A stretch of DNA of 64,000 nt from the NCBI GenBank assembly GCA_963825865.1, contig CAWGVG010000036.1, positions 96,001-160,000 on the forward strand, in the 5' to 3' direction. The notes beneath the pieces are model-generated. The model did not search any database and was not told the origin of the DNA. It saw only the letters and a program-made list of their open reading frames with translations. Each line of letters opens with the position of its first letter. Positions within the stretch are counted from its first letter, which is position 1. This DNA is from an uncultured Nitrososphaeraceae archaeon (GTDB lineage: Archaea; Thermoproteota; Nitrososphaeria; Nitrososphaerales; Nitrososphaeraceae). Both the position numbers and the translations under genes were made by a program. Of this stretch, positions 12,334 through 50,647 are shown piece by piece.

Positions 12334-12356
12334 GAGCCATTATTTTTTTCTGGCTC
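12334..12356 (-). terminator. Type-B 3' hairpin of MNNT copy 1
   Basis: GAGCCA...TGGCTC stem; same element follows copy 9 at 37832. Confidence 0.6.
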
Positions 12357-12363
12357 ATATGAA

Positions 12364-12578
12364 TTATGGAATGCAGACTAGCTGTGACGAATTAGTTGCA
12401 GAGCCAACTTTATCTGAGGTTGTCGATGGTGGAGTGTTCCCTTCCCCTTCGACGGGTCTGTTTGGAAACTCAAATAGAGTAGTTGTATGTGGACATGGTG
12501 CTCCTGGATCTCCTTTATCTCCTTTCACTCCCTGGAGTCCCTGGTCGCCTTTATCCCCATAGCTGTTGTATTGTTCAT
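12364..12578 (-). pseudogene. MNNT family copy 1: internally deleted, collagen-like tail
   Basis: ATG AAC AAT ACA start behind the family upstream block, joined out of frame to GDKGDQGLQGVKGDKGDPGAPC...VCIP*. Confidence 0.65.
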
Positions 12579-12715
12579 ATATTTTCATTACAATGTCATC
12601 TATATATCTGACTTGAGGAAGTTAATGCTGTTTGTTATAACTGACTTATCTAGTATAATTATTGAGAATATCCAAGCAGGTGATGTTATTCACTCATCTA
12701 TTGTCATTAGATATT
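12579..12715 (-). promoter_or_regulatory. Conserved MNNT upstream block (short type)
   Basis: tgacttgaggaagttaatgctg...ttatctag...attgagaatatc shared with 8 other copies. Confidence 0.75.
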
Positions 12716-13337
12716 CTTGAGAACAAAATTATAAACGAAATATCCTATCGAATCTTTGCTTGGTGTAGATTGTAAGATTTAGATCAATTCATTTTTTAAT
12801 GCTTTAGACTAGAGGATAACACAATTTGCAGCACATTCCACCGAACCTATATCAATATAACTGTCCGTTTGTCTGCACTATGTGATTAATAAATTAGTAA
12901 ACTACGGCCATGTAATTTTTAATATGCAAAGCTGCCAATAATAGTCAGGATCACATCATTTTTAAGAGAAGATATCTTTTTCAGGCTTATAATCCAACTA
13001 TTATTTATATTGCATCATACACTTTAAATGAACAAATACCTGAATATTATTTTTATAAATAATAGAGGAGATATATATATTCAGCACATAGATAGATAGA
13101 TGGAGAGACAGGCAACACAGACACACATACTTCTACACAAAAATAATATACACATGTATATGCACATGTGCAGTAAAGTACTCTGACTAGTGGTAGTTGT
13201 GGAGGAGGGAGGAAGAAGAAGACAAAGATTAAACCGAGTAAAAGTATTTTTGTAGATTATAAATTTTTTATTTTGTTTTATTATTTTTTATTTAAGTGCG
13301 CACAGATATATGTGAAAAAGGAAAGAAAAAATGTTGT

Positions 13338-13360
13338 GGTAGTAGTAATAAATTACTACC
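13338..13360 (-). terminator. Type-A 3' hairpin plus T-tract (copy 2)
   Basis: GGTAGTA...TACTACC then ACAAC and a T-run on the coding strand. Confidence 0.65.
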
Positions 13361-13398
13361 TTACCTGTAGTAACAGTCGCTGCTGTTGTGCTATTCTA

Positions 13399-13680
13399 CT
13401 AACCGCTTTCACTAGTACAGGTTGCGTTTTCGCCAGGGTGTGTGCAGATAACGTTTTCAGCTTCTTGGTCTAGTGTGTTATCAAACCCACTTACTGACCC
13501 TTTTTGTTTGTTTGCCTGGATGGTAACTGTGTTACCATTCTCATTTCCATTATCTCTTCCCTTGTCTCCTTTCTTTTGATAATAAGCAGATGCAGAGTGT
13601 GTTGCTGCGAATGTTACTCCTACTACTAATGTTGCCGCTGTTAAGACAGCAACTATTGCTAGAGTTCTTGTGTTGTTCAT
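13399..13680 (-). CDS. MNNT family secreted small protein, copy 2
   Basis: Signal peptide, K-rich linker, NGNTVTIQANKQKGSVSGFDN...NVICTHPGENATC. Confidence 0.85.
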   Translation of the reverse strand: MNNTRTLAIVAVLTAATLVVGVTFAATHSASAYYQKKGDKGRDNGNENGNTVTIQANKQKGSVSGFDNTLDQEAENVICTHPGENATCTSESG

Positions 13681-13918
13681 TTAGATTTCGTCACCAACAT
13701 TATGATTTCATCTGTATATTTGACTTGAGGAAGCTAATGCTGTTTTATCTAATATAATTTAGTGCTTACTTATCTAGCATAAGTATTGAGGATATCAAAT
13801 GACATGAAATTACTCATTTATCTATTGATAGTAGATATTCACTATAATTAAATAATAACAAATAAACGCACCACTAACATAGAGTTTTTCTTTTATACTT
13901 TTAAATAAAACACACACT
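13681..13918 (-). promoter_or_regulatory. Conserved MNNT upstream block (long type, with distal extension)
   Basis: Aligns by eye with 15082-15310 and 28574-28806 over its whole length. Confidence 0.8.
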
Positions 13919-14254
13919 GGTCATCATATCAACACATGATGCAAAATTGTTATAAAATTATATCCTTTAATGGTTAAAGTTATAGTTGAACCCTGGATAT
14001 ATGTTCTTAAGAGTATTGTAAGTCAGTCAATTGGGAATTACGGTAAGCTATTACTTGTCTTTTTGACAAGTTCATCTTATCGTTATAGCTTTAGCTTGCT
14101 ACAGTTTAGTCAGAGGAAGGGAAGAGAGAGTTGTACGACCTTCTAGATAATAATCCTGACATTGTCATATTTTATATGACGCCTTTTTTCGTTGAATATA
14201 TATATATGTAACTAAAAAAATAATACAACACAATAAGAATCCAAACAACATCTT

Positions 14255-14420
14255 ATAAGGACCTAAAAAGACAACATGGTAGTAAAAATGGTAATATGTA
14301 GTTGTTGATACGGTGGAGTAGGTAAACAAACAACACGGAGAGAAAGTGGATTTGATGACGCTCATTCGAGCAAGATGTTCAAAACGTGATATGTACTCAC
14401 CCAAGCGCAGCCCTGTAGGT
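14255..14420 (+). pseudogene. Decayed MNNT family core
   Basis: agtaaaaatggtaat (SKNGN), aacaaacaa (NKQ), agtggatttgat (SGFD), gagcaagatgttcaaaacgtgatatgtactcacccaagc (EQDVQNVICTHPS), with stops and indels. Confidence 0.7.
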
Positions 14421-14724
14421 GAAACATTAACAATACTAATAATACTAGTCACACTAATGACAACAATATCATGATAATGTCTTGCAGGTAATCGTTATGA
14501 TGATGTAAAAATGTCACTCAGGCCTATAGCAATGTTACTCCCCCCACAGAAGAGACAGGCATTGTACCTTGGAAGATCTCCATAGAGTGATGCCCCTAGG
14601 TCCTCATCATATATATGCATACACCCATGTGCGCACAGCAGAGCAGATGTGCCTAGTATCTGTGGAAGAAGAAGCAGACCAAGATAATCAAGCAGGTAAC
14701 AGCTATAAAATAAAAAAAGGTTGT

Positions 14725-14744
14725 GGTAGTAGTAAAGAACTACC
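14725..14744 (-). terminator. Type-A 3' hairpin plus T-tract (copy 3)
   Basis: GGTAGT...ACTACC-ACAAC-C-T7. Confidence 0.65.
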
Positions 14745-14775
14745 TTCTCATGTAGTAATCGCTACAGCTGCTATT

Positions 14776-15081
14776 CTAGCCGCTTTCTTCTACACACGTG
14801 TCATCTGGATGAGTGCAGATAACATTTGAAGCTTCTTGTTCTAGTGTGTTATCAAATCCACTTACTGACCCTCTTTGTTTGTTTGCCTGGATGGTAACTG
14901 TGTTACCATTTTCATTTCCATTGTCTCTTCCGTCTTTTCCCTTGTTATCTTTTCTATCTTTTCCATTGTCTTTCTTGTAAGCAAATGCTGATGGTGTAGA
15001 TGTTGCTGCGAATGTTACTCCTACTACTAATGTTGCCGCTATTAAGATAGCAACTATTGCTAGAGTTCTTGTGTTGTTCAT
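14776..15081 (-). CDS. MNNT family secreted small protein, copy 3
   Basis: Signal ending AFA-Y, KKDNGKDRKDNKGKD linker, core ...NVICTHPDDTCVEESG. Confidence 0.85.
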   Translation of the reverse strand: MNNTRTLAIVAILIAATLVVGVTFAATSTPSAFAYKKDNGKDRKDNKGKDGRDNGNENGNTVTIQANKQRGSVSGFDNTLEQEASNVICTHPDDTCVEESG

Positions 15082-15310
15082 TTAGATTTCGTCATCAAGC
15101 ATTACGATATCATCTGTATATTTGACTTCAAGAAATTAATGCTGTTTGTTATTACTGACTTATCTAACATAATTATTGAGAATATCAAATGACGTGAATT
15201 TATTCATTTATCTATTGATAGTAGATATTCACTATAATTAAATAATAACAAATAAACGCACCACTAACATAGAGTTTTTCTTTTGTACTTTTAAATAAAA
15301 CGCACACTAG
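15082..15310 (-). promoter_or_regulatory. Conserved MNNT upstream block (short type, with distal extension)
   Basis: Same block as upstream of copies 2 and 5. Confidence 0.8.
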
Positions 15311-16080
15311 CAGACTTTGAGTACTATAGTTATAACTAAATGATAATAATAAAAACATATGACAAATTAAAATGTCCAATATGATACTTTTTAAGCTATT
15401 ATGTAATAAAGAAATGAAACTTTGGCTTAGGCCGTCCGTGATGAACATGTGCCTCTAGTGTACATAAGACCTGAGATGTGATAATTACACATCACATGCT
15501 TCATTCGAGCATGCACTCTAACCTAAATTCGTACCCATACATCGTATTTCATATATCAATTCTTAATGTGGCTGTTTTTCCCATCACGTCGTTCTGCGAT
15601 AGTGGTAGTATATTATTGCTTCTTTCTTCTGTTGGGGGATGGCTGATGGTCGTCTTTGACTATTTTTTGTGAATGCATCAAGAATGCATCTCTTTGTTAG
15701 TCTATTGTGCACGGGATATGATGCCACTAGAAGAACACTGATAGGTACTATTCGTAATGGAGTTTGATAATTTGTAAGTAAATCTGTTGCAACTATGCCA
15801 AAGCATTAAGCTTTTATCTTCATATTTTAGAACGCTGATTTGTAAGTTTTCAATAATAATTATAGTAATTTAATAAATATATGCCAATAAACAAGACATG
15901 AATAACACAACTTTGGGATTTATAGGCGAGAAATATACTATTGAGGATACTAAAGAACAACTCATGAAAGTTTCTATAGGCAGGAGCAGAGCTGATACTA
16001 AAAGATAGAGTGGCAAATGTGAAGGAAAAAGGTTTTGCTGTAAAGTTCTCAATATGCAATAATCATGGTTTTCTTCTTGG

Positions 16081-16416: not shown

Positions 16417-16605
16417 TATTAACGTTGTTTGAATGCGGCTCTTTTAACTATATAATAAAAATCTTCTAGGCTTTATTTGCATTCATTGTGTGGACATGAA
16501 ATAGAGTCCAAAGACCACATGATTCAATTGTGCATTCAAAGGTCGATTGAATGGACGGTTAATTTTTACAACAGCAGCTTAGCATACTAATTCTTCTAAC
16601 ACTTT

Positions 16606-19248: not shown

Positions 19249-19266
19249 GGTAGTAAATTAACTACC
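19249..19266 (-). terminator. Type-A 3' hairpin after a decayed distant MNNT-like gene
   Basis: GGTAGT...ACTACC-ACAAC-C-T7; upstream remnant reads NGNNST...C...CINEA. Confidence 0.55.
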
Positions 19267-20658
19267 TTGTTGTGCATCTTCTTCGGGGCTGTGGCCATCC
19301 TCATTATTGGTGCTGCCGTCATCATTACTGGTGTTATCAGTAGGATTAACGTGGTTCTTGATAGTAATGAAGATTGCAGCTTCATTAATGCATGAGTGTT
19401 TGATTGGACTTTTTTTTACCATCAGTGTCACAATTTGTCTTCTACTTCATGATGGCGGTAGAGTTGTTACCATTTACTGTCGTACAGTAAGACCATATGC
19501 TGCTGCCATATGCTAAATAGATGGTTGTTCTTTCAATGAAGAAACAGTGGTATTCTTGAATTTCTTAAAACACGATATATTGTATTTGCTAGTCTAACAT
19601 ACTTAGATTCCTTCAATATCTATAGTCTATTATGCTTCTAGAAAGCTTTGACGGAATCTGTCAAAAGCATGTTTTCTAGAGCCTAATGTATACTATATTA
19701 GGAATATATAGGCTATATTCATTCTACAATTATGAATATAGTAGCGATTCCAAAATCGGTACATGAAAACAGGATCCTAGAGAACAGCCAGGTGTTTGTT
19801 GACTTCCAGCTTGCGCCTGAAGATATGAAACTTCTAGACTCGCTGAACGAGAATTTGCAGACAGTCTTCTTTGGTTAGTGATTGATTGAGTGTCTTCTGG
19901 AAAAGTTTGATATTCACCTACAATTAACGGTGAATTGATCTGATAATACAATGGGATTAATCACTTTCTAACAAGACATGCGCTTATGAGTGCGTTTTTT
20001 ATTCTTGTTTATTCAGATCCAAAAATATGGAAGAAGACTCTACTTCTGTGTGTTTAATGGAACAAGAGTCACTCTATCTGGTACCTGATGTATAATCCCT
20101 GTATGTGACGTGTATAAATGGTCTGGTAGCTGGGCTGATGCCTGCATCGTCTTTGAACTTACAATAAAGCTGCCTATTGAGAAAAACAAACAAACAAACA
20201 GATAATATGGCAGCAGATATCCTAAGATTCGTTCTTATGTTTGTATATTTCAATATATAGATTATCTTAGTAATTATTGTTAGTATATTTATCTTTTAAA
20301 CATTGTTTCCTTACTTTGTTTCTGCTAAATTATAAGTGTTTTTCACTATTATTAGTAATAAGTGGATAGATATTATTATTTGATATAGTATTCTGTTTTG
20401 TCTGGTTCTCTATATCTCGCTGTGCACTATCCTGCTAACAAATGACTGATTACGATTCTTTTTAAAGCCTATTTTTCTAAATCTTTAACGTTCTCATTTT
20501 TGATAAGGACTATTTGAAAGCAAATAAATGGTAACAAGCATATCATTGTGGTAAGACAGTAACAGCTTTACAAATTGTCACGTTATGGTTAGATATATAG
20601 ATATAGATAAATCCACCTGCAAGTATCTATCCTGCTTAGTTTTTGTTACTCTTCTTGG

Positions 20659-21405: not shown

Positions 21406-21413
21406 AATTAAAT

Positions 21414-27976: not shown

Positions 27977-28573
27977 CTATTTCTGTATTGTTAGTCTTTC
28001 GTCTCCAGAAATCAAGCCCGCTTGTTGTAGACAATCGAATAGGGCTCTTGCGTGACCTTCAGTAATATCACCGCTTAAGACAAGTCCAATTAGTATGAGT
28101 TCGATTTGCAGATCTGATACTGTGCCGGTGTTGATTATTTTGCATACGTCTTCAATTGAGGATACCTTGAAACCCAGTTTTACGAATGCTTGAATAAAAG
28201 CTTTTTGCTCATCCAAGGTAAGCTTTGTTGTGAAACAGTCTGCGCACGGATCTTTCACTGCGCCATTATTGACTGCGCCGTTATTGACTGCGCCGTTTTC
28301 TCTTACACATGATGCATTGTCACCTGGATGTGTGCATATCACGTTTTGACATTCTTGTGCTAATGAGTTATCAAATCCGCTTTCTGTCGCGTCTTGTTTG
28401 CATGCCTGTAAGGTAACTGTGTTACCATCTCTACTATTTTCTTGTGATCCTCCTCTATTCTTCTTTTGATAAGCAAGTGCTGTTTGTGTTGTTGCTGTTG
28501 CTGCAAATGTTCCTACTACTAATGTTGCTGCCATAAAGATAGCAACTATAGCTAAAGTTTTTGTGTTGTTCAT
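27977..28573 (-). CDS. MNNT family copy 5 with Cys-containing, probably helical C-terminal domain
   Basis: Core QACKQ...SGFDN...QECQNVICTHPGDNASC, then NGAV repeats, then DPCADCF...CK...CLQQAG. Confidence 0.85.
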   Translation of the reverse strand: MNNTKTLAIVAIFMAATLVVGTFAATATTQTALAYQKKNRGGSQENSRDGNTVTLQACKQDATESGFDNSLAQECQNVICTHPGDNASCVRENGAVNNGAVNNGAVKDPCADCFTTKLTLDEQKAFIQAFVKLGFKVSSIEDVCKIINTGTVSDLQIELILIGLVLSGDITEGHARALFDCLQQAGLISGDERLTIQK

Positions 28574-28806
28574 ACGTTACCAAGCAATATGATTTCATCT
28601 ATATATTTGACTTGAGGAAGTTAATGCTGTTTTATTTAGTATGATTTAGTGCTAACTTATCTAGCATAACTATTGAGAATATCAAATGACGTGAAATTAA
28701 TCATTTATATATTGGTAGTATATATTCACTGTAATTAAATAATAATAAATAAACCCACCACTAACATCGAGCTTTCTTTTATGTTTTTAAATAAAACACA
28801 CGCTAG
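28574..28806 (-). promoter_or_regulatory. Conserved MNNT upstream block (long type, with distal extension)
   Basis: Aligns with 13681-13918. Confidence 0.8.
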
Positions 28807-29060: not shown

Positions 29061-29431
29061 GCAGTGGTGTTATATCTATTTCTCTCTCTGTCTCTTTCTC
29101 CAATCTGCAACAGCTAATCGAGAATTCTATGCGAAGGCGTTGCACTGTGCCTGCTTGGTATAACATTATTACTATACATTATTATATATCTTATATGAAA
29201 AGATTGTTATAGTTAATTGTAAGTTAAAAAAGAGTATTTGTAAGTTAAGAGGCTCTTCCGAATCTAGTACTTTTGCCTATATATACCATTGTCATCAAAA
29301 ATACTTCATAAAAAATATATTAAAACATATTAAAACATATTAAAACATGGTTATATCATCCATTATGCTAAAAAATCCTGGATTATAGCACCAAACTACT
29401 CAACTTTTCATTGGCACCTGAACCAAAACAA

Positions 29432-29896
29432 TTCAATTATAATTAACATAGTTACTTAACAATCTTTTTATTCCAGATTACACCACTAACTATTAGATGT
29501 AGATTGGCATAGATAGAATGGTGGAGCGAGGTAGTTGTGTTGTTCATAATCTACTACTATTGTTGACCTATCTTCTGTCTTGCTAGTCTACATCTTTTAG
29601 ATTTAAAGTTTTAGGAGAGGGATTATTAAGAATAAACGAATAACTATTGAATTAATCTATGATATATAATTTAATTAATTTACACTCTTGGTTGTTTTGC
29701 CATATTAATTACCTGCTTACCTTTTTTTGTAAGCTTGTTGTATCGCCTGTTTTTAATTATTCTTCTTTCTACTAATCCATCATTGTGTGCTTTAAGCAAA
29801 AGTTTGTGACCATAACCATATCCCCCAAGCATTTTTAGTAGTTCTCTGGCTGTAAGAGCAATAAGCAAAGTTATAGAAGCATACAAACGAGATAAG
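29432..29896. repeat. About 465-bp near-identical inverted duplication of 35194-35658
   Basis: Direct reverse-complement match; includes a wHTH-like ORF end and the start of the TnpB remnant. Confidence 0.92.
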
Positions 29897-30420
29897 ACGA
29901 TTAAACCAGCATTCAAACCACCTGGTTCAATACATACGACCAGAGAAATTCTAGAATAGGAATTGATACGGCGTCTATAATGACTTTGCAAGGAAGGTTG
30001 AAACTTCCTACTAGAATAGGAGGGTATCAGAAAGCAAGGTTTGATAGGGTTCGTGGCCAATGCGATTTAATATACAGAAATGGTGTTTTCTACCTGATTG
30101 TCGTAGTAGATATGCACCAGAAAAGTCAGAAGAATATGATCCTGTTGGTGCTTTAGGCGTAGACTTGGGAATTAAAAATATAGCAGTAGATAGCGATAGA
30201 CAGATATTCGAAAGTAAAAAAGTTGAGAAAGCAAGACAGCATTATAACAAACAAAGATCAATATTACAGAAGGTAGGGACTAAATCAGCAGAGAAAACTA
30301 AAGAAAATATCTGGTAAGGAAAGACGTTTTAAGAAAGATACTAACCATTTTGAATGCCTTCAATGTGGATATAAGGAAATGGCGGATTATATTGCAGCAA
30401 AGAATATTGCTCGCCTAGGT
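29852..30420 (+). mobile_element. tnpB: IS200/IS605 TnpB pseudogene, truncated and internally deleted
   Basis: VRAISKVIEAYKRDK...YDQR; RGQCDLIYRNGVFYL; RuvC-I LGVDLGIKNIAVDS; KKDTNH joined directly to FECLQCGYKEMADYIAAKNIA. Confidence 0.85.
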
Positions 30421-31075: not shown

Positions 31076-31098
31076 GGTAGTAGTAGTAAAGAACTACC
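31076..31098 (-). terminator. Type-A 3' hairpin plus T-tract (copy 6)
   Basis: GGTAGT...ACTACC-ACAAC-T8. Confidence 0.65.
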
Positions 31099-31129
31099 TT
31101 ACCATGTATTAAGAGCTACAGCTGTTATT

Positions 31130-31435
31130 CTAACCGCTTTCTTCTACACACGTGTCATCTGGATGAGTGCAGATAACATTTTGTGCTTCTTGTTCTAGTG
31201 AGTTATCAAATCCACTTACTGACCCTCTTTGTTTGTTTGCCTGGATGGTGACTGTGTTACCATTTTCATTTCTATTATCTCTTCCGTCTTTTCCCTTGTT
31301 ATCCTTTCTGTCTTTTCCATTGTCTTTCTTGTAGGCAAATGCTGATGGTGTAGATGTTGCTGCGAACGTTACTCCTACTACTAATGTTGCCGCTGTTAAG
31401 ACAGCAACTATTGCTAGAGTTCTTGTGTTGTTCAT
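31130..31435 (-). CDS. MNNT family copy 6, near-identical to copy 3
   Basis: 101 aa; only a few substitutions versus 14776-15081. Confidence 0.87.
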   Translation of the reverse strand: MNNTRTLAIVAVLTAATLVVGVTFAATSTPSAFAYKKDNGKDRKDNKGKDGRDNRNENGNTVTIQANKQRGSVSGFDNSLEQEAQNVICTHPDDTCVEESG

Positions 31436-31590
31436 TTAGATTTCGTCACAAGCATTACAATGTCATCTATATATTTGACTTGAGGAAGTTAATGCTGTTT
31501 GTTATTACTGACTTGTCTAGCATAGCTATTGAGGATATCAAATGACGTGAAATTACTCATTTATCTATCATCAGTTATATTCTATAATTA
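31436..31590 (-). promoter_or_regulatory. Conserved MNNT upstream block (short type)
   Basis: Block ends at tataatta, next to the transposase region. Confidence 0.8.
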
Positions 31591-31717: not shown

Positions 31718-32759
31718 ATGGTAGTAGTAAATGTGAATCTATCCTTTTTAGTATTCTGTATTTGATAGGATTGATACCATGGTCAGAATCACAAAAAAAG
31801 ATGAAAAGAAGGAGAAGAAGGGGCAGACCGTATGTCTATTCACCTAGCATAATTCTGAGATGTTTCATAGTAAGACTATGGTTTAGATTGGATTCTAACA
31901 ATGCATTACATAAATTCCTAGAATTGGATTATCCTTACAATAAGAAGATAATGAAAAGGTGTGGTCTGAGCCAAATACCATATAGACGAACATTTGACAG
32001 ACGACTTAAGACCATATCCATAGACATCAAGGAAAGGATTTCTGTCATGACCTGCCTGTTTGTATGCGAAAAGATGATAGATCCATACATTGTTGCAATA
32101 GATAGCACCTTACTCAAGGCCAAAGGATCTGTCTGGCACAAATCATCTATGGAGAATGGAATAGTACCACGTTCTGGCATAGATATACTGATGCAAGGTG
32201 GGGATTCAGTCATACTAAAGGATGGATATTTGGTTACAAACTACATATGATATCAAGTACTGGTTTGACTATATTACCATTAGCAGCTGATTTTACAACT
32301 GGCAACATACAGGATAACCAGATGTACAATCCAATGACATCATCATCAATGACTACAACTACTACTATACCAGAAGAAAAAATATGTTACATGATAGGCG
32401 ATTCTGGTTATGACGATCAAAAACTATATGATCTTAGCATAAACAGAGGATTTGAACTGATATGTCCAGTACAGAGGTATGAACATACTCCTGCTGACAG
32501 ACTGGAGTTAATCCAATTCTATGAATCTGAGTTAGGACAGGCTATATACTCTTGGAGAAGTAAATCAATAGAACCACTAATAGAGCATATTAAATCTGTT
32601 TTTAGAATAGACCCATTACCGGTAAGAGGCTATCAGATGGCTGCTGGAACAGGACTTCTGTCAGTACTACTGTATCAAATCATCGTTTATTACAATTATA
32701 AAACCAATCCTTATCTAATCTCTGCTGCAGTTCAACAACAACAGTTCTCCAAGCAGTAA
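31718..32759 (+). mobile_element. DDE transposase (DDE_Tnp_1-like), frameshifted
   Basis: RGRPYVYS, PYRRTFDRRL, VAIDSTLL, FGYKLH (shifted frame), IGDSGYD, RSKSIEPLIEHIK. Confidence 0.85.
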
Positions 32760-33299: not shown

Positions 33300-34016
33300 A
33301 ATAAAGAGGAGGTTTTTTTCGTTCTAGTATCTATCTGATCTATGTGGCCGGACTCTCTTTTATACAGACTGTACCATGTGGACCTATTGGGTTGCCTGGA
33401 TCTCCAGATTCTACCAGAGCAAGCACGAACCCACTATTACCCTCTGAATTATTACATGGATTCTGATTTGGCTGTGCTACTACTACTCTAAAGGTATTAC
33501 CAGGAGTGCCTTGAGGATGTTGTTGGCAAAGTTGCTGTTTGGTCTCCGAGTTTCTTAGGCAGACATAATATCGTACCTGCAGGTATTGGCTCGTTGGCCA
33601 CCTTGGGCTGGGACCGTGTCATTGAGTTTCTACGTTATTGAGCAGTGCCATGCTGGACATCCTATTTCACTTGGTGGTGTTACTGGTGTTACTGGTGTTA
33701 CTGCTCTGCTTCGTTTTCAGTTACACATGTTGCATTGTTGCCTGGATGTGGTACATATCACGTTTTGACATTCTTGTTCTGCTGTGTTATCAAATCCACT
33801 TACTGAACCTAGTTGTTTGCATTTTTGGATGGTATCTGTGTTACCATTTTTACTATTTCCGTTATCTCGTGTTCCTTTCTTGTAAGTATCTTGTCCTCCT
33901 TTTTTCTTCTGATAAGCAAGTGCTGATTGTGTTGTTGTTGCTGCAAATGTTCCTGCTACTACTAATGTTGCTGCTATAAACATAGCAGCTATTGCTAGAG
34001 TTTTTGTGTTGTTCAT
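33300..34016 (-). CDS. MNNT family copy 7 with long Pro/Gly/Cys-rich tail, frameshifted
   Basis: Core QKCKQ...QECQNVICT; shifted frames give HPGNNATC, VTPVTPVTPP, PIPAGTILCLPK, NPCNN, GDPGNPIGPHGTVCIK; 3' end approximate. Confidence 0.7.
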
Positions 34017-34177
34017 ATAGTTTCGTTACCAAACATTATGATGTCGTCTATATATTTGACTTGTCGAACTTAATGCTGATTTATTTAGTATAATTTAGTG
34101 CTAACTTATCTAGCATAATTATTGAGAATATCAAATGACGTTAAATTACTCATTTATCTATTGATAGTGGATATTCA
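34017..34177 (-). promoter_or_regulatory. Conserved MNNT upstream block (long type)
   Basis: Near-identical to 34683-34852. Confidence 0.8.
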
Positions 34178-34361
34178 GAGTAATAACAAATAACAAATAA
34201 TAAACTGTATAACTTACCACTTTTTTCTTATATATACACGGTGTAAATAAACCGCACAAGATAATAGGAGACTTAATGCTGAAGAGGAAGAAGAGGAGGA
34301 GGAAAAATAATAATATACACTAGTAGTTTTTGCGCTGATATAAAAAAGAAAAAAAGGTTGT

Positions 34362-34384
34362 GGTAGTAGTAATAATGAACTACC
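34362..34384 (-). terminator. Type-A 3' hairpin plus T-tract (copy 8)
   Basis: GGTAGT...ACTACC-ACAAC-C-T-run. Confidence 0.65.
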
Positions 34385-34418
34385 TTACCATGCAGTAACA
34401 GCTACAGCTGTTGCTATT

Positions 34419-34682
34419 CTAACCGCTTTCACTAGTACAGGTTGCGTTTTCGCCAGGGTGTGTGCAGATAACGTTTTAAGCTTCTTGTTCTAGATCGTTA
34501 TCCCATCCACTTACTGACCCTTTTTGTTTGTTTGCCTGGATGGTGACTGTGTTACCATCTTTACTATTGTCCTGTCCTTTCTTGAAAGCAAATGCTGCTG
34601 ATGTTGCTGAGACTGTTAATCCCACTACTAATGTTGCCGCTGTTAAGACAGCAACTATTGCTAGAGTTTTTGTGTTGTTCAT
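34419..34682 (-). pseudogene. MNNT family copy 8 with in-frame TAA
   Basis: QEA-TAA-NVICTHPGENATCTSESG*; copy 2 has GAA at this codon. Confidence 0.75.
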
Positions 34683-34852
34683 ATAGGTTTCGTCACAAGC
34701 ATTACAATGTCATCTATATATTTGACTTGTCGAAGTTAATGCTGATTTATTTAGTATAATTTAGTGCTAACTTATCTAGCATAACTATTGAGAATATCAA
34801 ATGACGTTAAATTACTCATTTATCTATTGATAGTAGATATTTACTATAACTA
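34683..34852 (-). promoter_or_regulatory. Conserved MNNT upstream block (long type)
   Basis: Shared motifs tttgacttg, ttaatgctg, ttatctagcat, atatcaaatgacg. Confidence 0.8.
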
Positions 34853-35193
34853 AATAACCGAGAGTGCGGCATAATTTGATTATGCAATGTTCAAGTTAGT
34901 TTTATTGACAAGTCCGGTTAGTTAGCTTCATTTATAAATATCCAGATGCTCTGATTCTCGTTATTCCTTTTGTAATTCTTCTGCAGCATTTATTGTTTTA
35001 GGTTCCTCTTCTTCTTTTCGCTCTATTATTGTCAGTATTAGTATTCTCTCTTTTGTTTGGCATTTGGTGTTTTCATAACTCAGCTTTACTATATCAATCT
35101 TAAAGAGGTAAAAACACTTTGGTTAATTTAATTAATTCATATAATAATTTTGAAAAGGTTGTAATTAATCTTTCTGTTACAACAGGTGCAATC

Positions 35194-35658
35194 CTTATCT
35201 CGTTTGTATGCTTCTATAACTTTGCTTATTGCTCTTACAGCCAGAGAACTACTAAAAATGCTTGGGGGATATGGTTATGGTCACAAACTTTTGCTTAAAG
35301 CACACAACGATTGGTTAGTAGAAAGAAGAATAAATAAAAACAGGTGATACAACAAGCTTACAAAAAAAAGTAAGCAGGTAACTAATATAGCAAAACAACT
35401 AAGAGTGTAGATTAATTAAATTATATATTATAGATTAATTCAATATTATTCGTTCATTCTTAATAATCCGCTCTCCTAAAACTTTAAATCTAAAAGATGT
35501 AGACTAGCAAGACAGAAGATAGGTCAACAATAGTAGTAGATTATGAACAACACAACTACCTCGCTCCACCATTCTATCTATGCCAATCTACATCTAATAG
35601 TTAGTGGTGTAATCTGGAATAAAAAGATTGTTAAGTAACTATGTTAATTATAATTGAA
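35194..35658. repeat. Inverted partner of 29432-29896
   Basis: Reverse-complement match. Confidence 0.92.
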
Positions 35659-36192
35659 ATGTGTGTATTTATTTATTTAGGGATGGGAGTAGCCTCTATG
35701 GACAATTACATTTTTTATTATTGTGACTTCAAAAGTGATGTCAAAGGTTCAGAAAAAAAGTTGAATACATTGAGTTGATCTCATATATTATTAATTATAA
35801 TCTCACAACTTTCTGCAACTCCATATTATACAACCTATTGATCAATAAGTTATGATATCATCACAAGACGAATATTGCCGAGATATGATAATGATATCAT
35901 GCATGCATGAATACGACTTTATGCTATTATCATTAACAATATCGCATTCTTGCTTCCATTGCGTCATTTTCTTTGTATAATTGTACAATAAGAGTAATTA
36001 TTATAAAGATAATATAGTCGCAATTATTACGCCCGTAATGTTAGATCATAATAATAGAGAAAATAATTATTAAGAATCATAAATTAACAATTTAATACAT
36101 CTTTGATGTGAAACAATATATAAGTTTTAAATTATAGCAAGATTAACATTAAATCAAATATACTATAATAACAAATCCCTAATTAGAATTTC

Positions 36193-36541
36193 ATGAAGAA
36201 CAACGACACAACTTTAATAATGATTGCAGTAATAATGACGGCTACATTTATGGTGACAGCACTTGTATGGCAGCAGGCAGCGTGCGCAAGCCGAGATACA
36301 GTCGGAAAGTAGCTCAACATCATGTGTAGACAATCATCCGTGCCACATTTCAGTGTCGAATTCGACTGCACCTTCATCATCATCATCAAAATCAAATCAC
36401 AATAAAATCCGTAGCTCAATAACTTGTGTAAACGATCATCCATGCCACACTTCGGCGCTGAATTCAACTGAGAGCCTATCTCAAAACTATCCGCCTATAG
36501 ATAATGAGCTATCCGATTTAATCGGAGATACAACAAACTAA
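36193..36541 (+). CDS. Small secreted protein with duplicated CVxxHPCH motif, frameshifted
   Basis: MKNNDTTLIMIAVIMTATFMVTAL signal; SSTSCVDNHPCHISVSNST / SSITCVNDHPCHTSALNST. Confidence 0.6.
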
Positions 36542-37107
36542 AAATACTAATGCAAGGTAGTTTTCCTACTTCTTTCTCATATCTTATAAATCGTTTTTAA
36601 TCTGTTGTGTCTTAAGGTTGTTCTTTCTATAACAGTATTATTATATGATATTTTTGGATTTGTTCCGCTTTTCTATTGGTAGATGCAATTTTCTTCTTCT
36701 TCTTTGATTGGAGGATTTTTCTATACCTTCGTATTCTCGACCCTGCAAAGCTACATTTTTTTGTATATATTGCTAACTGTAACCAAATTCGTCTTTCTTT
36801 TGTCAGAGAAAATATATTTAACTAGAGAATCGACAAAATCTTCGAATCCTGGTGCTGTCATTAAGTGAAATAATGTAGTTTACATCTTATTAAATAACTT
36901 CAGTGCGTGATTATCATATCATCATCATCATCATCGAATATGTGTTCTTTTTTATAGTTATGATAACTCAACTTTGCAATGTCGAATGATATGGCTTGTT
37001 TCATATTCCAAGGGAATGGGTCTTCTGCTTGCTCTTTTTTCCTATTATGATTTCTTGTGGGGTGTAGTGGATGAAAAGGGCACTGTTATGTTATATATTT
37101 ATTATTT

Positions 37108-37255
37108 AATTATAATCGAATAAATACTGTTTATAGATAAATGAAAAATTTCACGTCATTTGATATCAACAATAATTATGCTAAATAATTCAGCAGTAAC
37201 AAATAGCATTAACTTCCTCAAGTCAAATATAGAGATGGCCTTGTATTGGGAATAT
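37108..37255 (+). promoter_or_regulatory. Conserved MNNT upstream block (short type)
   Basis: tagataaatg...tttcacgtcatttgatat...gcattaacttcctcaagtcaaatata. Confidence 0.8.
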
Positions 37256-37824
37256 ATGGACAACACGAGAATTCTAGCAATGTTAGCTATCTTAATGGCA
37301 GCAACACTAGTAGTAGGAGGAACATTAGCGCAGCAACAACAACAACACCATCAGCATTTGCTTATCAGAAGAAGAAAGGATCACAAGACGGTAGTGAAAA
37401 CGGTAACACAGTTACCCCCCAGAATAACAAACAAGACGGGATAGTGAGTGGATTTGATAACTCATTCAACCAAGAACTTCAAAACCTGATATGTACCCAT
37501 CCAAGCGCGACCTGTTCAACTGAAGGCAGTGAAGGCGCTGCGACTACAGCCAGCGGCAGCACTAGCAACACAGGCAGCACTAGCAACACAGGCAGCACTA
37601 GCAACACAGGCAGCACTAGCAACACAGGCAGCACTAGCAACACAGGCAGCACTAGCAACACAGGCAGCACTAGCAACACAGGGAGCACTAGCAACGCTCA
37701 ACAAGGATCACAAGGACTTAAAGAAAATACAGGTTCTCACGGATCACAAAGGAGCTCATGTACTGTAGGAGGTTCTTTTACTGATCTGGTACAGACAATC
37801 TGCATTCCAACGCTTAAGCCGTAA
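37256..37824 (+). CDS. MNNT family copy 9 with (STSNTG)7 tail, frameshift near 37330
   Basis: MDNTRILAMLAILMAATLVVGG, then SAFAYQKKK...NGNTVTPQNNKQ...SGFDN...NLICTHPSATC...ICIPTLKP*. Confidence 0.8.
37558..37695 (+). repeat. 18-bp tandem repeat AGCACTAGCAACACAGGC, 7 units plus a partial
   Basis: Counted directly; encodes STSNTG. Confidence 0.95.
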
Positions 37825-37831
37825 TTCTTAT

Positions 37832-45119: not shown

Positions 45120-46490
45120 TTACGTCTTCATTTGGCCAGCGATCGTTCTGAGATCCCAAATCGATTTTTTAGTAGTAGCAAAATTATTACCTTCGCTATT
45201 ATTGTTATGCGCATTTGATGCAATTCCACCTTCAATCAATTGATTTACAACCAGGGCAGCCATAGGTAAGGCTCCAGTAGCCCCTGGTGAGTTATAATTG
45301 AGAAGATGTAATGAACTATCTTTTTTGATAATGAATGTATCAGAGACGAATCTTCCATACTTATCAAGTAGTGAGGATCTAATCCCAGAGGTTCCCCTTT
45401 GAGTAAACAAGGAGGGTTTCAGTTGTGGCAAAAATTCCCTTGCTCTATTTATCATGGCATTTTTGGAAAGCGAACTTTTTAATTCGTTGCTGGCCAGGGA
45501 TAAAAATTGTCTATTTGTTAGAATTTTGCGAATACCAGTTCGCGACGATTCAAAAACCTTGGGTATGAAGTATCTTAGATTGTTGCTCCAACTATATGCA
45601 TAAGGCCCAAATACAGGAACTGCATTTGGGCCTACCTCACATCTTCCATCAATGCGAACTACCCAATGCGGATCTAAGAAAGGGTATTCCGGATATTTTG
45701 GAACAGCGTAAATACTTAATTTTGTCAGATCATTGTATTCTGCTGGAGCCTGCCAATATTCACCCCTAAAGTGGAGATCTGTATATTCATTTGCTACGCC
45801 CATACTATGGGCAATGTCAACTGCATTACCTCCAGCTGCATTAATTACATATTCTGCAGAAATTTCTTCTCCATTGTTTGTATAAAGAAATATGCAATTA
45901 TTTTTGCAGAAGATTTTTCTTACTTTGCTACCGGTAATTATGGTACAACCAAATTGTTTTGCATCTTCAAAAAGTTGCTTAGTAATTGCTCCATATATTA
46001 CAGATCCATCCTTTAGACAGTAAATAGCAGATAAGCATTTTACATTTGGCTCGATCTTTAGGACCTCATCTTTTTCTAAAAATTTTAGTTCACTCTTCTG
46101 CAAGCCATTAGAATAACCCCATTCAATATATTTCTGAAGTACATCTATTCCTTTATCATAGGTTGCAATTTCTAATACCCCGTCCTGTTTAAAAGGTAAT
46201 GATTTTAGGGTGCAATACTCCTTTAACATATCAAAACCGAGAAAGGCTCGCTTTTGCGAAAAGTCTTTTTTTAATCGGATCATATAGAAAAGGAGCATGG
46301 ACTTTGCCTGTGTTTCTAGTGCTTGTATGAAATGCAACATCGTGTTCCTGCTCAATGAGTAAGACTTTAGAGTTAGAAGCAGAGGAGAGAAAGTATGCTA
46401 TCGAAGTGCCTAAAATCCCTCCTCCAATAATCGCGATATTATAAGGATCTTGCAATTTCAAGTTTTGTTTTCTCTCTTCCTCTTCCATCT
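45120..46490 (-). CDS. FAD-dependent oxidoreductase (L-2-hydroxyglutarate oxidase-like), frameshifted
   Basis: IIGGGILG, HTSTRNTGKVHA, FRGEY, PFLDPH, GIR, SPGATGA. Confidence 0.8.
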
Positions 46491-46897
46491 GTAATTGGAA
46501 GAATTTGATACTTTTACTCATCGGAGCAACAACATTTAATGTTTTATTTGGCTCTGGATTTGTTATTAATTGTAGGAATTCCACAAAGCTGAACAAAAGT
46601 TCGTTTTTATTGACTTATCGAGATAAACTACGTTAACTCTTGTTGTTGCTATCGTTGTTGTTGTTGCTGTTGCCTAACACAAAACCTCTCCATTTTTACA
46701 TATTGTCTTGTTAATTGTAAACTTTATTAAAGACTCTATTTTCTTCTTTTTTCAATTAGCTAAAGAATCACCTAATATCAATCATTCATTGCTAGAAATC
46801 GAATCTTGCTTTTTAATCTGTAAACTATGGCATTATATTATGGCGAATAAATTAAATGCAAGGTTGCGTAGAGCTCTAATTAGGTAGCCATAGATCT

Positions 46898-47785
46898 GTG
46901 AGTGCAAAGGATTACATCGAAGTTTCAAAGCCCAGAATAGTTATTGTTCTTGTAATCACAGCTGTTACATCGTTGCTTGCTGGTAGCAGGTTTGACAACA
47001 CACCATCTAATGCATGGGATGTTACTCTGTGGCAATTAGGTTTTCTTGTATTAACAGGCGCTATGGCATCAATGGGTTCTAGTGCTCTTAACCATTATTA
47101 TGATAGGGATATTGATAAAAAGATGGCTAGAACCTCAGAAAGGCCCATTCCTGCCGGGAGATTGTCTGTAAAAAGTGTTCTACTTTATGGAATTAGTCTT
47201 TGCATTCTGTCAGTTGTCATTGCATGGTTTACATTGAATCCTGTAGCTACTGGAATGATTGCTCTTGGTATCTTTTTTTATGTTATAATCTATACAGCAT
47301 GGCTTAAACGTATTAATGCCTCAAATATTGTCATCGGAGGCTTTGCAGGAAGCGCTGCGTCTATGGCGGGGTGGGCAACTGCGACTGGTTCAATAAATTT
47401 ACTTGGATTTTTAATTGGCTGGCTTGTATTTATGTGGACTCCTCCGCATTTCTGGTGTCTTGCAATCAGAGCAAGGGAAGAGTACGCTAGCGTTGGTGTT
47501 CCCATGCTGCCTGTTTTAATTGGAAATCAGAGGACTGCGAGCTACATTTTCGCAAATACTGCAATTTTACTACCGTATTCTATAGCACTTTACTTCTTTG
47601 GATTGGGTATTGTGTATACAATAATTGCAGCGATTTCTGGATCACTCATGTTGGTGTATCATTACAAATTAACAAAAACTCCGACGCCAGAGTTTGCTTG
47701 GAAAGCATACAAAGTTACTGCGCCATACTTGGTCATAATATTTGTTGCAATAGCACTGGATGCATTTTTTTATTACAGAATATAG
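46898..47785 (+). CDS. ctaB: Protoheme IX farnesyltransferase (heme o synthase)
   Basis: KPRI, NHYYDRDIDKKMARTSERPIP, FMWTPPHFW. Confidence 0.93.
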   Translation: MSAKDYIEVSKPRIVIVLVITAVTSLLAGSRFDNTPSNAWDVTLWQLGFLVLTGAMASMGSSALNHYYDRDIDKKMARTSERPIPAGRLSVKSVLLYGISLCILSVVIAWFTLNPVATGMIALGIFFYVIIYTAWLKRINASNIVIGGFAGSAASMAGWATATGSINLLGFLIGWLVFMWTPPHFWCLAIRAREEYASVGVPMLPVLIGNQRTASYIFANTAILLPYSIALYFFGLGIVYTIIAAISGSLMLVYHYKLTKTPTPEFAWKAYKVTAPYLVIIFVAIALDAFFYYRI

Positions 47786-48507
47786 TGTTAGTAGCAGTCC
47801 ATTGAAACAGATTTTTATAGTTATACGCGGTATAATCGAACATATAGTAGAGCTTGCATTATTTGTTTGAGCAAAATGAATGAGCACAACTAAAATAAAA
47901 TTTGTAACTATAGACTTTATGCATCTATGGCAAGGCAAAAATAGTCTTTGTTAAAAATATGCTAATTCCATGAAAATGTAAGCTCGAAAATATAATGCCA
48001 TATATTACTAATTAAATTAATATTGATAATAAGAGTAACGATAAATATGCTTCTGTTGAATCATCAATTATTGCTTTATTGTCATATTGTTAGGATTCAG
48101 TTAGGTTAATAAAGAAACATCGATTTTATCAATTATGTATACATCCCGTCTTCTGCCCTGTTTCTTTTTAAGAAAATACCAGAGAAATTCTTGGGAAAGA
48201 GTCGTCATCAATAAGAATTGTTCCAGCAACCAAATAAATAATATCTGTGGGCTTAAGAAATAATAATTTAATTTGTACTCGCAAAAGAATTCATAAAAAA
48301 AAGGAAGAAATATGTACAAGCTTGAAGTGACAATACCTTTTACTTTATTAGGTACTATAAAGTAATAGTACGGTACCATGAAGGATCAGATGTACTATTA
48401 TAAAAACACTAAGTTATATTTAGATTCAAAAAAAATAAAAAAAAATCATCTACCGATCAAACGATAATTAATAGATTGAAAATTGGTCAAATGATATGTG
48501 CATAAAA

Positions 48508-48876
48508 ATGAAGAAAATCTTGGTGGTGGATGATGAGCCAGATACAAGTTTGTTGTTAAAGATAGTTTTAGAGAGCAATAGTTTCAAAGTAGATTCTTTT
48601 GATAACCCGATTCTGGCATTAAAAAATTTTAGGGGTAATTTGTATGATCTCTTAATTCTTGATATCAGAATGTCACAAATGAATGGTATCAAACTCTATC
48701 AAGAAATTAGAAAGATAGACAATAAAGTTAAGGTATGTTTTTTGACAGCTGGCCAATCGTATTATGGCGCATTTACAAATATATTTCGCGATTTAAAGGA
48801 AGACCGATTTATTCAAAAACCAATTGAAAATGAAAAGTTGATACAAAGAATAAATGAAATAATTAGTTCAAACTAA
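48508..48876 (+). CDS. Stand-alone response-regulator receiver
   Basis: ILVVDDE, LLILDIRM, FLTA, FIQKP. Confidence 0.88.
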   Translation: MKKILVVDDEPDTSLLLKIVLESNSFKVDSFDNPILALKNFRGNLYDLLILDIRMSQMNGIKLYQEIRKIDNKVKVCFLTAGQSYYGAFTNIFRDLKEDRFIQKPIENEKLIQRINEIISSN

Positions 48877-49278
48877 CTATAGATATATACCTATAACTAA
48901 CATCAATGTTTTTAGTTCTTGCTATTTCTAAAATATGTTTTCTATGATGTCGGGGGAACAACATATAACTAACTACTATACATGGCTAATAATTAGTTGT
49001 CTAAAAAATACATAATCTATAGATGAATCCTTTGTATTCAAATATTTATCAAAAGCAAATAATCACGAGAAGTAGATGATTCATTCCTGACTAATACTCC
49101 CTTTGTGTATATTATTCAACTTTCTAAATTTGTCACCGACGTCGAAATATGCAATTTTTGATGTCCATTAAATTATTGCGTGGTTATTGCATAATTAGGA
49201 TTAATATATGACATAGAGCCTGAGTGTATATTATCTATATAATTATTTTTATTATTATTGGTGTTACTATTTTGTTTA

Positions 49279-49503
49279 CTAAGCTGAGCTAGAATCCACT
49301 ACCGCTTCAACTCTTCGTTTATCTTTTGTAATCCATGAGACTCTAATCAAGCCGTAAATTTCTAGGTCTAGCAGAACCTTATTTAAATCGGCTCCGCTTA
49401 AAAAGACATCACCTTTATTCAAGGCATTTATTAGTTCAGAATCTGTCATGTTACCTGCCTGCTTTATCTTCTCGTAAATTAGATTACGTATTGGGTAAGT
49501 CAT
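49279..49503 (-). CDS. Small winged-helix-like hypothetical protein
   Basis: LNKVLLDLEIYGLIRVSW. Confidence 0.65.
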   Translation of the reverse strand: MTYPIRNLIYEKIKQAGNMTDSELINALNKGDVFLSGADLNKVLLDLEIYGLIRVSWITKDKRRVEAVVDSSSA

Positions 49504-49543
49504 CTTTGTTAGTATAGGGTATTACACTACTTAGCCTTATATT

Positions 49544-49574
49544 GTATCTCCTATGAAGTCACTATAGGAGATAC
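49544..49574. repeat. Perfect 11-bp inverted repeat GTATCTCCTAT-N9-ATAGGAGATAC
   Basis: Read directly; TATGAAGTCACTAT inside it recurs at 49610-49623. Confidence 0.8.
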
Positions 49575-49626
49575 CAGAGGGTATTTTCTTAATTACCAGA
49601 AAGTTTCATTATGAAGTCACTATTCA

Positions 49627-49796
49627 GTTATAGTGAATATACTACTATCAATAGATAAAGGATTAATTTCACGTCATTTGATATTCTCGATAATTATACT
49701 AGATAAGTCAGCAATAAATCATATTAGATAAAACAGCATTAACTTCCTCAAGTCAAATATACAGATGAAATCATAACCATTGGTGACGAAATCTAT
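49627..49796 (+). promoter_or_regulatory. Conserved MNNT upstream block (long type)
   Basis: tagataa x3, tttcacgtcatttgatattc, cagcattaacttcctcaagtcaaatata. Confidence 0.8.
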
Positions 49797-50108
49797 ATGA
49801 ACAACACAAAAACTCTAGCAATAGTTGCTGTCTTAACAGCGGCAACATTAGTAGTAGGAGTAACATTTGCAGCAACAGCAACATCAGTAGCATTTGCTTA
49901 TAAGAAAGGACAAGATGGTAGAAAAGACAAGGGGAGAGATAATGGAAATGAAAATGGTAACACAGTTACCATCCAGGCAGAGAAGCAAAAAGCTTCAGTA
50001 AGTGGATTTGATAACAACGCCACACAAGAAGCTTCAAATGTTATCTGCACACACCCAAGCACATCTTGTGTGGTAGAGGGATCTCCATCTTCTGCTCGCT
50101 ACTGGTAG
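49797..50108 (+). CDS. MNNT family copy 10
   Basis: Signal, AFAYKK, NGNTVTIQAEKQ...SGFDN...NVICTHPSTSC. Confidence 0.85.
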   Translation: MNNTKTLAIVAVLTAATLVVGVTFAATATSVAFAYKKGQDGRKDKGRDNGNENGNTVTIQAEKQKASVSGFDNNATQEASNVICTHPSTSCVVEGSPSSARYW

Positions 50109-50154
50109 TACTACTGACGACAGCGGCGACAGCTCCGACGAAAATCCATAATAA

Positions 50155-50190
50155 GGTAGTAACTTTAACTACCGCAACTTTTTTTTCTTT
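50155..50190 (+). terminator. Type-A 3' hairpin plus T-tract (copy 10)
   Basis: GGTAGT-aacttta-ACTACC-GCAAC-T8. Confidence 0.65.
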
Positions 50191-50355
50191 TTCTTTTTCT
50201 TTTTCTTTTTCTATATCTTCTAAGAATTATAATAAATCAAAATAAAAAATTTTTTAAACGACCTTTTTCTTTATCTATCCAAGTTTGAATGGTGTTGTTG
50301 CTAACTAACTATAATGTGTATATAAAAAATAGTTAGTTCCTGCAACTGCTATCAC

Positions 50356-50647
50356 TTAATATGGAACAGGATATATGAATGGAGTCACAGCGCCGAAAAT
50401 GCATGTTGCATGTGTACAAAGTATATTTGTGGCCGTTTGTATACAGTTTGCGCCATCACTACATCTGCTTTTTTGATTAACTTCTTGTCCTGTTTTTGTA
50501 TTACCTGTCGCGTCAGCTTTCAGATCCTTTGTATGCGAATGTGCTTGTGCTACCTGCATAGGGAGAAGAAATGAGACCGATAGGCAGCAAGACAGAAGCT
50601 GGGATTGCAATCATCGCCAAACTCGTATAGTTCTTCTTCTTAAACAT
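50356..50647 (-). CDS. Distant MNNT-like secreted protein, frameshift in the signal region
   Basis: TGNTKTGQEVNQKSRCSDGANCIQTATNILCTHATC aligns with the family core; lacks the upstream block. Confidence 0.6.

Follow-up and report, generated by a model that had tools for sequence, protein, structure and literature searches.

A lineage-specific, heavily expanded family of export-type modular protein genes with a shared upstream block in a Nitrososphaeraceae archaeon

Families of proteins that share an anchoring module are known from bacteria, as in the SLH-domain proteins of Bacillus and the CWB2 proteins of Clostridioides difficile. Other described systems with related features are the curli subunit CsgA, a small Sec-exported protein whose polar, Q/N/T/G-rich strand-turn-strand sequence comes in five repeats; the chaplins of Streptomyces, which occur as short and long paralogs with a disulfide and are largely hydrophobic; and the Vlp/Vsp proteins of Mycoplasma, whose genes vary far less in a 5′ non-coding block and the signal-peptide codons than in the mature region. 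The gene family described here was encountered in a stretch of 64,000 nucleotides (nt) from an uncultured Nitrososphaeraceae archaeon (G000:C36:96001-160000; hereafter the window). The assembly measures 4.98 Mb in 62 contigs, is 82% complete and encodes archaeal AmoA (E 5.4e-115); at this size and completeness the amoA-positive genome stands at the top of the sizes of its family relatives (1.2-4.9 Mb among those listed). A preliminary description, made from the nucleotide sequence of the window, had recognised nine loci that share an upstream block and an M(N/D)NT start, and had read them as a family of exported peptides.

We find that these loci belong to a lineage-specific, heavily expanded family of real protein genes in this ammonia-oxidising archaeon. 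The reading that we favour, and to which we would give an even chance, is that they encode a family of proteins of the cell surface or matrix that are exported through Sec, regulated together and built on one shared N-terminal module. As in the SLH and CWB2 families, there are dozens of paralogs with a Sec-type signal, a small conserved module, linkers and variable domains, some of them adhesin-like (SpaA_2 in the protein P0224). In contrast to those families, to which there is no sequence relation, the module is here a single hairpin of ~45 amino acids (aa), predicted to be disulfide-braced, many members have no cargo, and the host is not a bacterium but an archaeon with an S-layer only, for which binding to the envelope is suggested by analogy.

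The preliminary description rightly took the family to be an expanding, exported one, but understated its scale. An nhmmer profile of the upstream block, built from a DNA alignment of the window upstream regions, has 89 matches in the genome, and a hidden Markov model (HMM) of the core domain alone, run on stop-to-stop open reading frames (ORFs), identifies 63 ORFs; full-length core domain matches number 38 and represent 35 distinct sequences. A profile of the family gives 85 matches at E ≤ 0.01, with E-values as low as 4e-50, which excludes chance. Merging the evidence for block, signal peptide and core yields ~94 loci on 37 of the 62 contigs, with all three parts at 40 loci, the block only at 26 and the core only at 14; 48 loci lie less than 5 kb from another one, and the contig of the window has the most, 18. 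With a density of roughly one locus per 50 kb, the family may rank among the largest paralogous families in such a genome. The preliminary description had also named an assembly artefact as a concern, and this is not the explanation of the repeats, since two studies, with four public runs between them, have Logan contigs that independently carry pieces of the cassette. Short Logan contigs stack on the bins of the block and the signal peptide, where the summed word depth reaches 150-300 as against ~3-10 beside them, a depth that is not to be equated with copy number.

Among relatives represented by one genome per species, a match was found in one of 40 and was weak (E 6.2e-4), and matches at E ≤ 1e-5 occur in two of 237 other genomes of the same family (five in G043 and three in G083). 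The ORFs of these two genomes keep the architecture, with a signal peptide ending in ...AFAGG, a K/D/Y spacer and the pattern TVTIQINKQKQ..SG....Q.A.NCI...NAC. Public protein sets hold 330 clusters at 90% identity in the band of 55-177 aa alone, and clustering at 50% identity gives 190 clusters, 133 of them at E ≤ 1e-10. Public members are thus common, yet none has been given a name, a domain model, a structure or a function: P0033 is called only 'hypothetical protein [Nitrososphaeraceae archaeon]', and neighbours in the ESM Atlas are solely unnamed Nitrososphaerota clusters. No paper describing the family was found by a full-text literature search, with supplementary files outside its reach; PMC13577086 is unrelated to the family. 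A scan of genome contigs, a set from which the genome itself may be left out, found no relative, and P0239 (1642 aa), with ten matched stretches, was set aside as an unrelated repeat protein that matches by chance.

In the window, the block model has exactly nine matches (E 2.7e-49 to 8.4e-34; 147-178 nt), and the 3′ edge of the block lies at, or within about 15 nt of, the ATGAACAA/ATGGACAA start of each copy. All nine loci of the preliminary description therefore stand. Their starts are at 12578, 13680, 15081, 28573, 31435, 34016 and 34682 on the minus strand and at 37256 and 49797 on the plus strand, and their parts are as follows.

12586-12732, minus strand: block of copy 1, followed at 12525-12578 by a remnant of 17 codons, MNNTTAMGIKATRDSRE and a stop
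12364-12588: chimeric ORF at copy 1, with about seven collagen-like GXY triplets (Collagen match E 8.2e-4, below the Pfam cut-off)
13338-13857, minus strand: copy 2, intact; block 13681-13857, coding sequence 13399-13680 (93 aa), hairpin and T run 13338-13360
14725-15246, minus strand: copy 3, intact; block 15082-15246, coding sequence 14776-15081 (101 aa), hairpin and T run 14725-14744
27977-28744, minus strand: copy 4, a long form; block 28573-28744, coding sequence 27977-28573 (198 aa)
31076-31590, minus strand: copy 5; block 31436-31590, coding sequence 31130-31435 (101 aa), hairpin 31076-31098
33717-34186, minus strand: copy 6; block 34020-34186, coding sequence 33717-34016 (99 aa), four-cysteine core with the variant tail ICTTSRQQCNMCN
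34362-34858, minus strand: copy 7; block 34683-34858, coding sequence 34476-34682, hairpin 34362-34384
37100-37824, plus strand: copy 8; block 37100-37248, MDNT start 37256
49619-50173, plus strand: copy 9, intact; block 49619-49796, coding sequence 49797-50108 (103 aa), hairpin and T run 50155-50173

Six of the nine copies are intact. A signal peptide, a K/D/N/G spacer and the core are encoded at eight loci, in line with the preliminary description, the remaining one being copy 1 with its 17 codons. The proteins begin with MNNT(K/R)TLAIVA..., or with MDNT in copy 8. Copy 4 combines a four-cysteine core with a C-terminal domain of five helices and four cysteines, and copy 5 is 94-95% identical to copy 3. 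Copy 7 is interrupted by a single in-frame TAA, which is a substitution; the frame beyond it reads NVICTHPGENATCTSESG and keeps the core in frame to 34419. A frameshift separates signal peptide and spacer in copy 8 and falls in CAA/ACA-rich sequence, not in a homopolymer, while the core and a (GSTSNT)n tail of about eight tandem units are in the frame of the ORF 37246-37824; the tails of this ORF and of the chimeric ORF of copy 1 share a similar terminal ...C(I/V)P motif. A 3′ hairpin of the form GGTAGT-loop-ACTACC, followed by ACAAC and a T run, stands behind five of the nine copies (2, 3, 5, 7 and 9), so that the earlier statement that most copies end in it is only just true.

The N-termini carry the features of exported proteins. 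In all eight signal peptides of the window, a hydrophobic stretch of ~20 residues leads to a terminal AxA that is followed by Y or F. The 25 intact copies of the genome on which the counts in this paragraph are based all begin with a short polar segment, behind which comes a hydrophobic stretch of similar length, and most of them show an AxA-type site (AFA, ALA, ASA or AYA) with Y, F, G, W, A or S as the next residue; three copies with long leaders extend past the residues examined for this site. Read from the sequences, a polar n-region, an h-region and small residues at -3 and -1 agree with Sec export and putative cleavage by signal peptidase I. We also considered an archaeal type IV pilin signal. 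In a class III signal peptide, a K/R-G/A cleavage motif directly precedes the hydrophobic stretch; here the K or R before that stretch is followed by T, S, I or N and never by G or A, two of the 25 copies have no K or R there, and the AxA site comes instead after the stretch. The class III assignment was rejected. A lipobox is likewise absent, as none of these copies has a cysteine where its signal peptide ends.

Behind the spacer lies the conserved core of ~45 aa, NGNTVTIQxxKQxxxxSGFDNxxxQExxN(V/L)ICTHPx3-5C. That it is no named domain, as had been stated, is borne out by our searches: no model in Pfam or NCBIfam reaches its cut-off for the window proteins, and the family profile has 0 matches in the PDB at E ≤ 10. 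Over 300 pairs of intact copies, the mean proportions of nonsynonymous and synonymous differences (pN and pS) are 0.21 and 0.40 and the median dN/dS is 0.42; like all pairwise statistics given here, these are taken over related paralogs, whose pairs are non-independent. With a dN/dS of ~0.4, the core is a real protein under purifying selection. Many cores possess two extra cysteine sites, placed symmetrically around SGFDN. In a set of 225 distinct cores, taken from 420 proteins or ORFs, both cysteines occur in 89 and neither in 131, and a single one is found in only 5. Such pairing around SGFDN suggests an antiparallel hairpin with a cross-strand disulfide and, in consequence, an oxidising, extracellular location. 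This argues for a core that is a long beta-hairpin (NGNTVTIQxxKQ ... QExxNVIC), disulfide-braced in many members, and a second small loop would be closed by a disulfide between the C of ICTHP and a cysteine 5-7 residues on (3-5 after THP). AlphaFold2 (AF2), run with 124 sequences, places strands at residues 63-67, 84-90 and 95-98 of copy 3, at a mean predicted local distance difference test (pLDDT) score of 53.6. The beta-hairpin of the preliminary description is thus supported in part, by the cysteine pair and by strands of low confidence.

The small loop invites another reading. Its H and P are at least 90% conserved in our alignments A3 and A5, and its Cys, His and Cys, which hardly vary, are closely spaced, so that a loop C-T-H-P-x3-5-C might bind copper outside the cell for the copper-dependent oxidation of ammonia, the genome having amoA. 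However, there are intact variants without His-Pro (ICTSSKLNLCK and the tail of copy 6), the simpler reading of the two cysteines is a disulfide, as for the co-occurring pair, and no metal-binding family is matched in Pfam, NCBIfam or the PDB profile search. We regard copper binding as highly improbable.

The hairpin was the ground on which a curli-like stacking fibre had been proposed. The family would then consist of fibre subunits like those of curli or the chaplins, whose polar beta-hairpins stack between molecules into an extracellular functional amyloid, with the long forms decorating or nucleating it. Read from alignment A5, the hairpin would indeed have one face rich in T, Q and N and another of V, I and A, and its small Sec-exported format and polar strand-turn-strand sequence are likenesses to CsgA. 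Short, abundant paralogs stand beside longer forms, as in the chaplins. Sec-exported matrix filaments are reported from both archaea and bacteria (PMC9245690, PMC9674648). On the other hand, the Curlin_rpt and chaplin profiles have no match at E ≤ 1 among 10 window proteins, and there is one unit per protein instead of the tandem repeats of CsgA; a second, short partial core match occurs in only 7 of the 63 core ORFs, which otherwise carry one full core each. The core is hydrophilic, being rich in N, Q, T, S, E and K, unlike the chaplins. No csgB/E/F/G-like partner lies near the family loci, nor does any assembly or secretion partner recur within 4 kb of 54 anchors, and the fusion of the core with globular adhesin-like and helical domains suggests a module, not a polymer. 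The self-association score of four core copies (0.02) bears neither way on binding. A fibre has nothing specific in its favour, and we consider it unlikely; the stacking fibre of the preliminary description is not supported by the profile searches, the number of units per protein or the neighbouring genes, although partners of another kind may be encoded elsewhere.

This modular character extends across the family. In the 190 clusters at 50% identity, as in the genome itself, the core lies mostly at residues ~45-100, in proteins that range from 44 to 426 aa. Behind it there are often P/T-rich linkers and additional domains, and the short forms in the window correspond to the N-terminal module alone. 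To judge from this layout, the core is the N-terminal module of modular proteins, and the term peptides, used in the preliminary description, is too narrow, although the export that it implied agrees with the signals. A few of the long members, and no window copy, have a SpaA_2 prealbumin-like domain, which in P0224 scores 36.6 bits against a cut-off of 25 (E 7.1e-9) and in P0253 falls just under that cut-off, at 23.9 bits. Other C-terminal parts are a beta domain ending in ...TFTGNVxCTTT, an 'EVGCP.GTLYNV' domain that is found in long members and also in L017, a relative from another genus, and the collagen-like and (GSTSNT)n tails of copies 1 and 8; P0142 has a weak DUF3060 match (E 0.004) below the cut-off. 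The helical four-cysteine domain of copy 4 (window 27980-28270) is predicted by AF2, at pLDDT 86-97, to form five helices. At C44:44420 it immediately follows a signal peptide, and it is present in 18 of 275 fetched proteins; Foldseek finds no convincing solved counterpart for it in the PDB (best E 1.3). A likeness to death-fold-like bundles (PYD, DED) was set aside, because the best VIA-align Z of 5.9 is uninformative for helical bundles.

A conserved N-terminal region, linkers and variable C-terminal domains are also the layout of polymorphic toxins, and small, cysteine-stabilised, secreted proteins could equally be antagonistic or signalling peptides, with the N-terminal part serving export or delivery and the C-terminal parts acting on neighbouring cells. 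Against this, no toxin, bacteriocin or immunity family is present in the 10 window proteins or in the 16 long members scanned, neither an immunity-like small neighbour nor a transporter recurs, ~90 copies with one shared promoter are unlike known bacteriocin loci, and conservation falls on the N-terminal domain of the mature protein, not on a leader that is cut off. A role as toxins or signals is in our view distinctly unlikely, and it and copper binding are weaker still than the fibre and the Mycoplasma-like reading discussed below.

The second conserved element of the family is the upstream block. Mean pairwise identity among the intact copies is 0.73 in the proximal 160 nt upstream, as against 0.67 for the core at four-fold synonymous sites, 0.49 farther upstream and 0.44 downstream. 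In 16 copies, the upstream p-distance is 0.236, pS of the signal peptide 0.181 and pS of the core 0.388, and the upstream distance is smaller than the core pS in 105 of 120 pairs. The block is also found outside this genome: it stands directly ahead of 36 of the 37 metagenomic core ORFs that have a recognisable start and at least 200 nt upstream, and partial matches lie directly before the relative in L014 (E 8.2e-10) and over the start of the relative's ORF in L017 (E 1.4e-5), two loci from other genera. For L013 and L015 the nhmmer matches are non-significant, and TCAGCAT.AA ... CAAATATAG is shared by eye. The block is not a structured RNA, since neither strand shows conserved pairs in RNAalifold, be it with 50 genomic sequences or with 83 genomic and metagenomic ones, and no Rfam family is present in the window (nor is a tRNA). 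Its best-conserved stretch is CAGCATTAACTTCCTCAAGTCAAATATA.AGATGAC. Many copies have a CAGCAT(T/C)AA box twice, with an indel of 12 nt between the boxes, and a TATA-like, A/T-rich AAATATA lies ~28 nt before the ATG. The pattern CAGCAT[TC]AA-N12-30-AAATATA occurs 23 times in the genome, each time inside a block match (23 of 23); the exact pattern TCAGCATTAA-N15-30-AAATATA fails to match anywhere in the window, its two elements being spaced 12 nt apart there. Archaeal TATA boxes keep a usual spacing to the start site, from which we propose that the mRNA would be nearly leaderless and the remaining ~130 nt an upstream regulatory region. The block is probably a promoter with a regulator-binding region, and co-regulation through it is plausible from its conservation. 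A scan for sigma-70 promoters and terminators was uninformative for an archaeon and overlooked the family hairpin.

Usually together with the MNNT signal peptide, the block also heads unrelated mature domains, namely BNR-like and glycine-rich proteins and the helical domain alone; two block-headed Ig-like proteins have a different signal peptide. A Cys-rich 'S(T/S)SC(V/I)NDQPCQT' repeat family uses block and MNNT signal as well (C29:52036-52287, C47:4651-4956 and C14:147263-147454), and an ORF related to it lies in the window at 36263-36541 on the plus strand, with no block detected. When the 259 ORFs of ≥90 aa lying up to 4 kb from 54 block anchors were clustered, no chaperone, transporter or small partner recurred, which fits stand-alone Sec substrates. 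The only recurrent neighbours are receiver-domain genes, insertion sequence (IS) genes and a small membrane protein.

Such a uniform 5′ head together with so many partial loci makes a variable surface system like the Vlp/Vsp proteins attractive, in which block and signal would be a region of recombination homology and the cell surface would be varied, for example against viruses. The 5′ module diverges less than the synonymous sites of the core in the same copies, it heads unrelated mature domains, truncated, frameshifted, block-only and core-only loci are many among the 94, and the loci stand in arrays among IS elements, one array between a pair of inverted repeats of 96-99%. However, a complete promoter block of its own precedes nearly every copy, which leaves no single expression site. 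In contrast to Mycoplasma, lipobox and poly-A tract are absent (the longest homopolymer is ≤7 nt in all 50 block copies, which leaves no poly-A-type switch), the mature N-terminal core is conserved, under purifying rather than diversifying selection, and the host is an archaeon. No invertase is linked to the loci, and part of the broken copies may be assembly errors. We consider variation of this kind unlikely. A somewhat better, still doubtful, proposal is a portable 'export head', by which a dedicated regulator at the CAGCAT(T/C)AA boxes would turn on some ninety promoters together and recombination at the head would capture unrelated mature domains, so that the archaeon would go on devising and displaying new surface and matrix proteins on the shared, hitherto undescribed hairpin module. 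If this were true, the head would be a regulon-scale archaeal counterpart of bacterial variable-surface-protein systems.

For the surface or matrix family that we favour, we propose the following organisation. The ~160-nt block would act as a core promoter with sites for a shared regulator and give a nearly leaderless mRNA. The encoded protein would begin with a Sec-type signal peptide, cleaved after AxA, and continue with a charged, low-complexity K/D/N/G(/Y) spacer and the domain of ~45 aa, in which a beta-hairpin would be followed by a short, disulfide-closed loop C-THP-x3-5-C. The module would serve as a shared handle by which proteins are held or presented outside the cell, either on the S-layer or within an extracellular matrix. 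The set would grow by tandem and segmental duplication, with mature domains being swapped behind the conserved block and signal peptide. A surface or matrix role is suggested by domain partners of adhesin type, by linkers and disulfides, and by the bacterial cell-wall families as an analogy, from which we infer that the proteins would present or retain variable domains and take part in adhesion.

Several points weigh against this proposal. The h-region of ~20 residues is long and could be an uncleaved membrane anchor. The core is poorly modelled (pLDDT 41-68, with 41-46 over the core in one model), so that the hairpin derives mainly from the cysteine pattern, which was itself counted over related sequences and not over independent events. 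The 5′ module could owe its low divergence to gene conversion and not to selection on a regulatory site, the putative role as handle or anchor is drawn from an analogy with bacterial cell-wall protein families, and short forms without a cargo domain are odd for a pure anchor. Moreover, many copies appear broken, and part of this may be due to assembly indels, as housekeeping genes in the window are split as well: CDC48 into three ORFs (9914-12129) and a DAO-family oxidoreductase into two (45120-46596). A P-type ATPase is truncated (4058-6224). The split housekeeping genes are either true pseudogenes or assembly indels.

Ammonia-oxidising archaea (AOA) drive nitrification in soil, and their attachment, aggregation and envelope shaping are poorly known. 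Should the proteins be factors of matrix, adhesion or surface variation, they would bear on the ecology of AOA biofilms and on the interplay of virus and host. The block, an unusually long conserved cis-element, offers a bait toward an archaeal regulator and a secretome regulon, and the core and the five-helix domain are suited to structural and localisation work.

Beyond the nine cassettes, the window contains three further traces of the family, which had been listed together as distant or decayed relatives. Only the one near 50400 is a real member; that near 14300 is decayed, and near 19400 there is a 3′ remnant with its hairpin.

50356-50610, minus strand: diverged member of 84 aa (core HMM E 1.4e-15), with a different signal peptide and no block match
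14257-14412, plus strand: decayed core remnant (E 0.0013; C36:110257-110412), with four stops inside the match
19249-19266, minus strand: orphan 3′ hairpin and T run, with a remnant of the family tail upstream

Stand-alone response-regulator receiver genes lie less than 4 kb from loci of the family in six cases on three contigs, one of them in the window at 48496-48876, and the small membrane protein, which we take to be FUN14-like, recurs near loci on six contigs; the recurrence of both may be chance, as both are multi-copy. Among the cassettes lie an IS605 OrfB fragment (30060-30317) and a DDE_Tnp_1 transposase that is split into two ORFs (31762-32759). Copies 5, 6 and 7 and an IS are bracketed by the arms of an inverted repeat at 29428-29896 and 35194-35662 (~470 nt in total, 96-99% complementary and 5.3 kb apart). 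A short ORF is present in both arms (ORFs 29680-30060 and 35186-35347), and the segment that they bound could be an invertible or composite mobile one.

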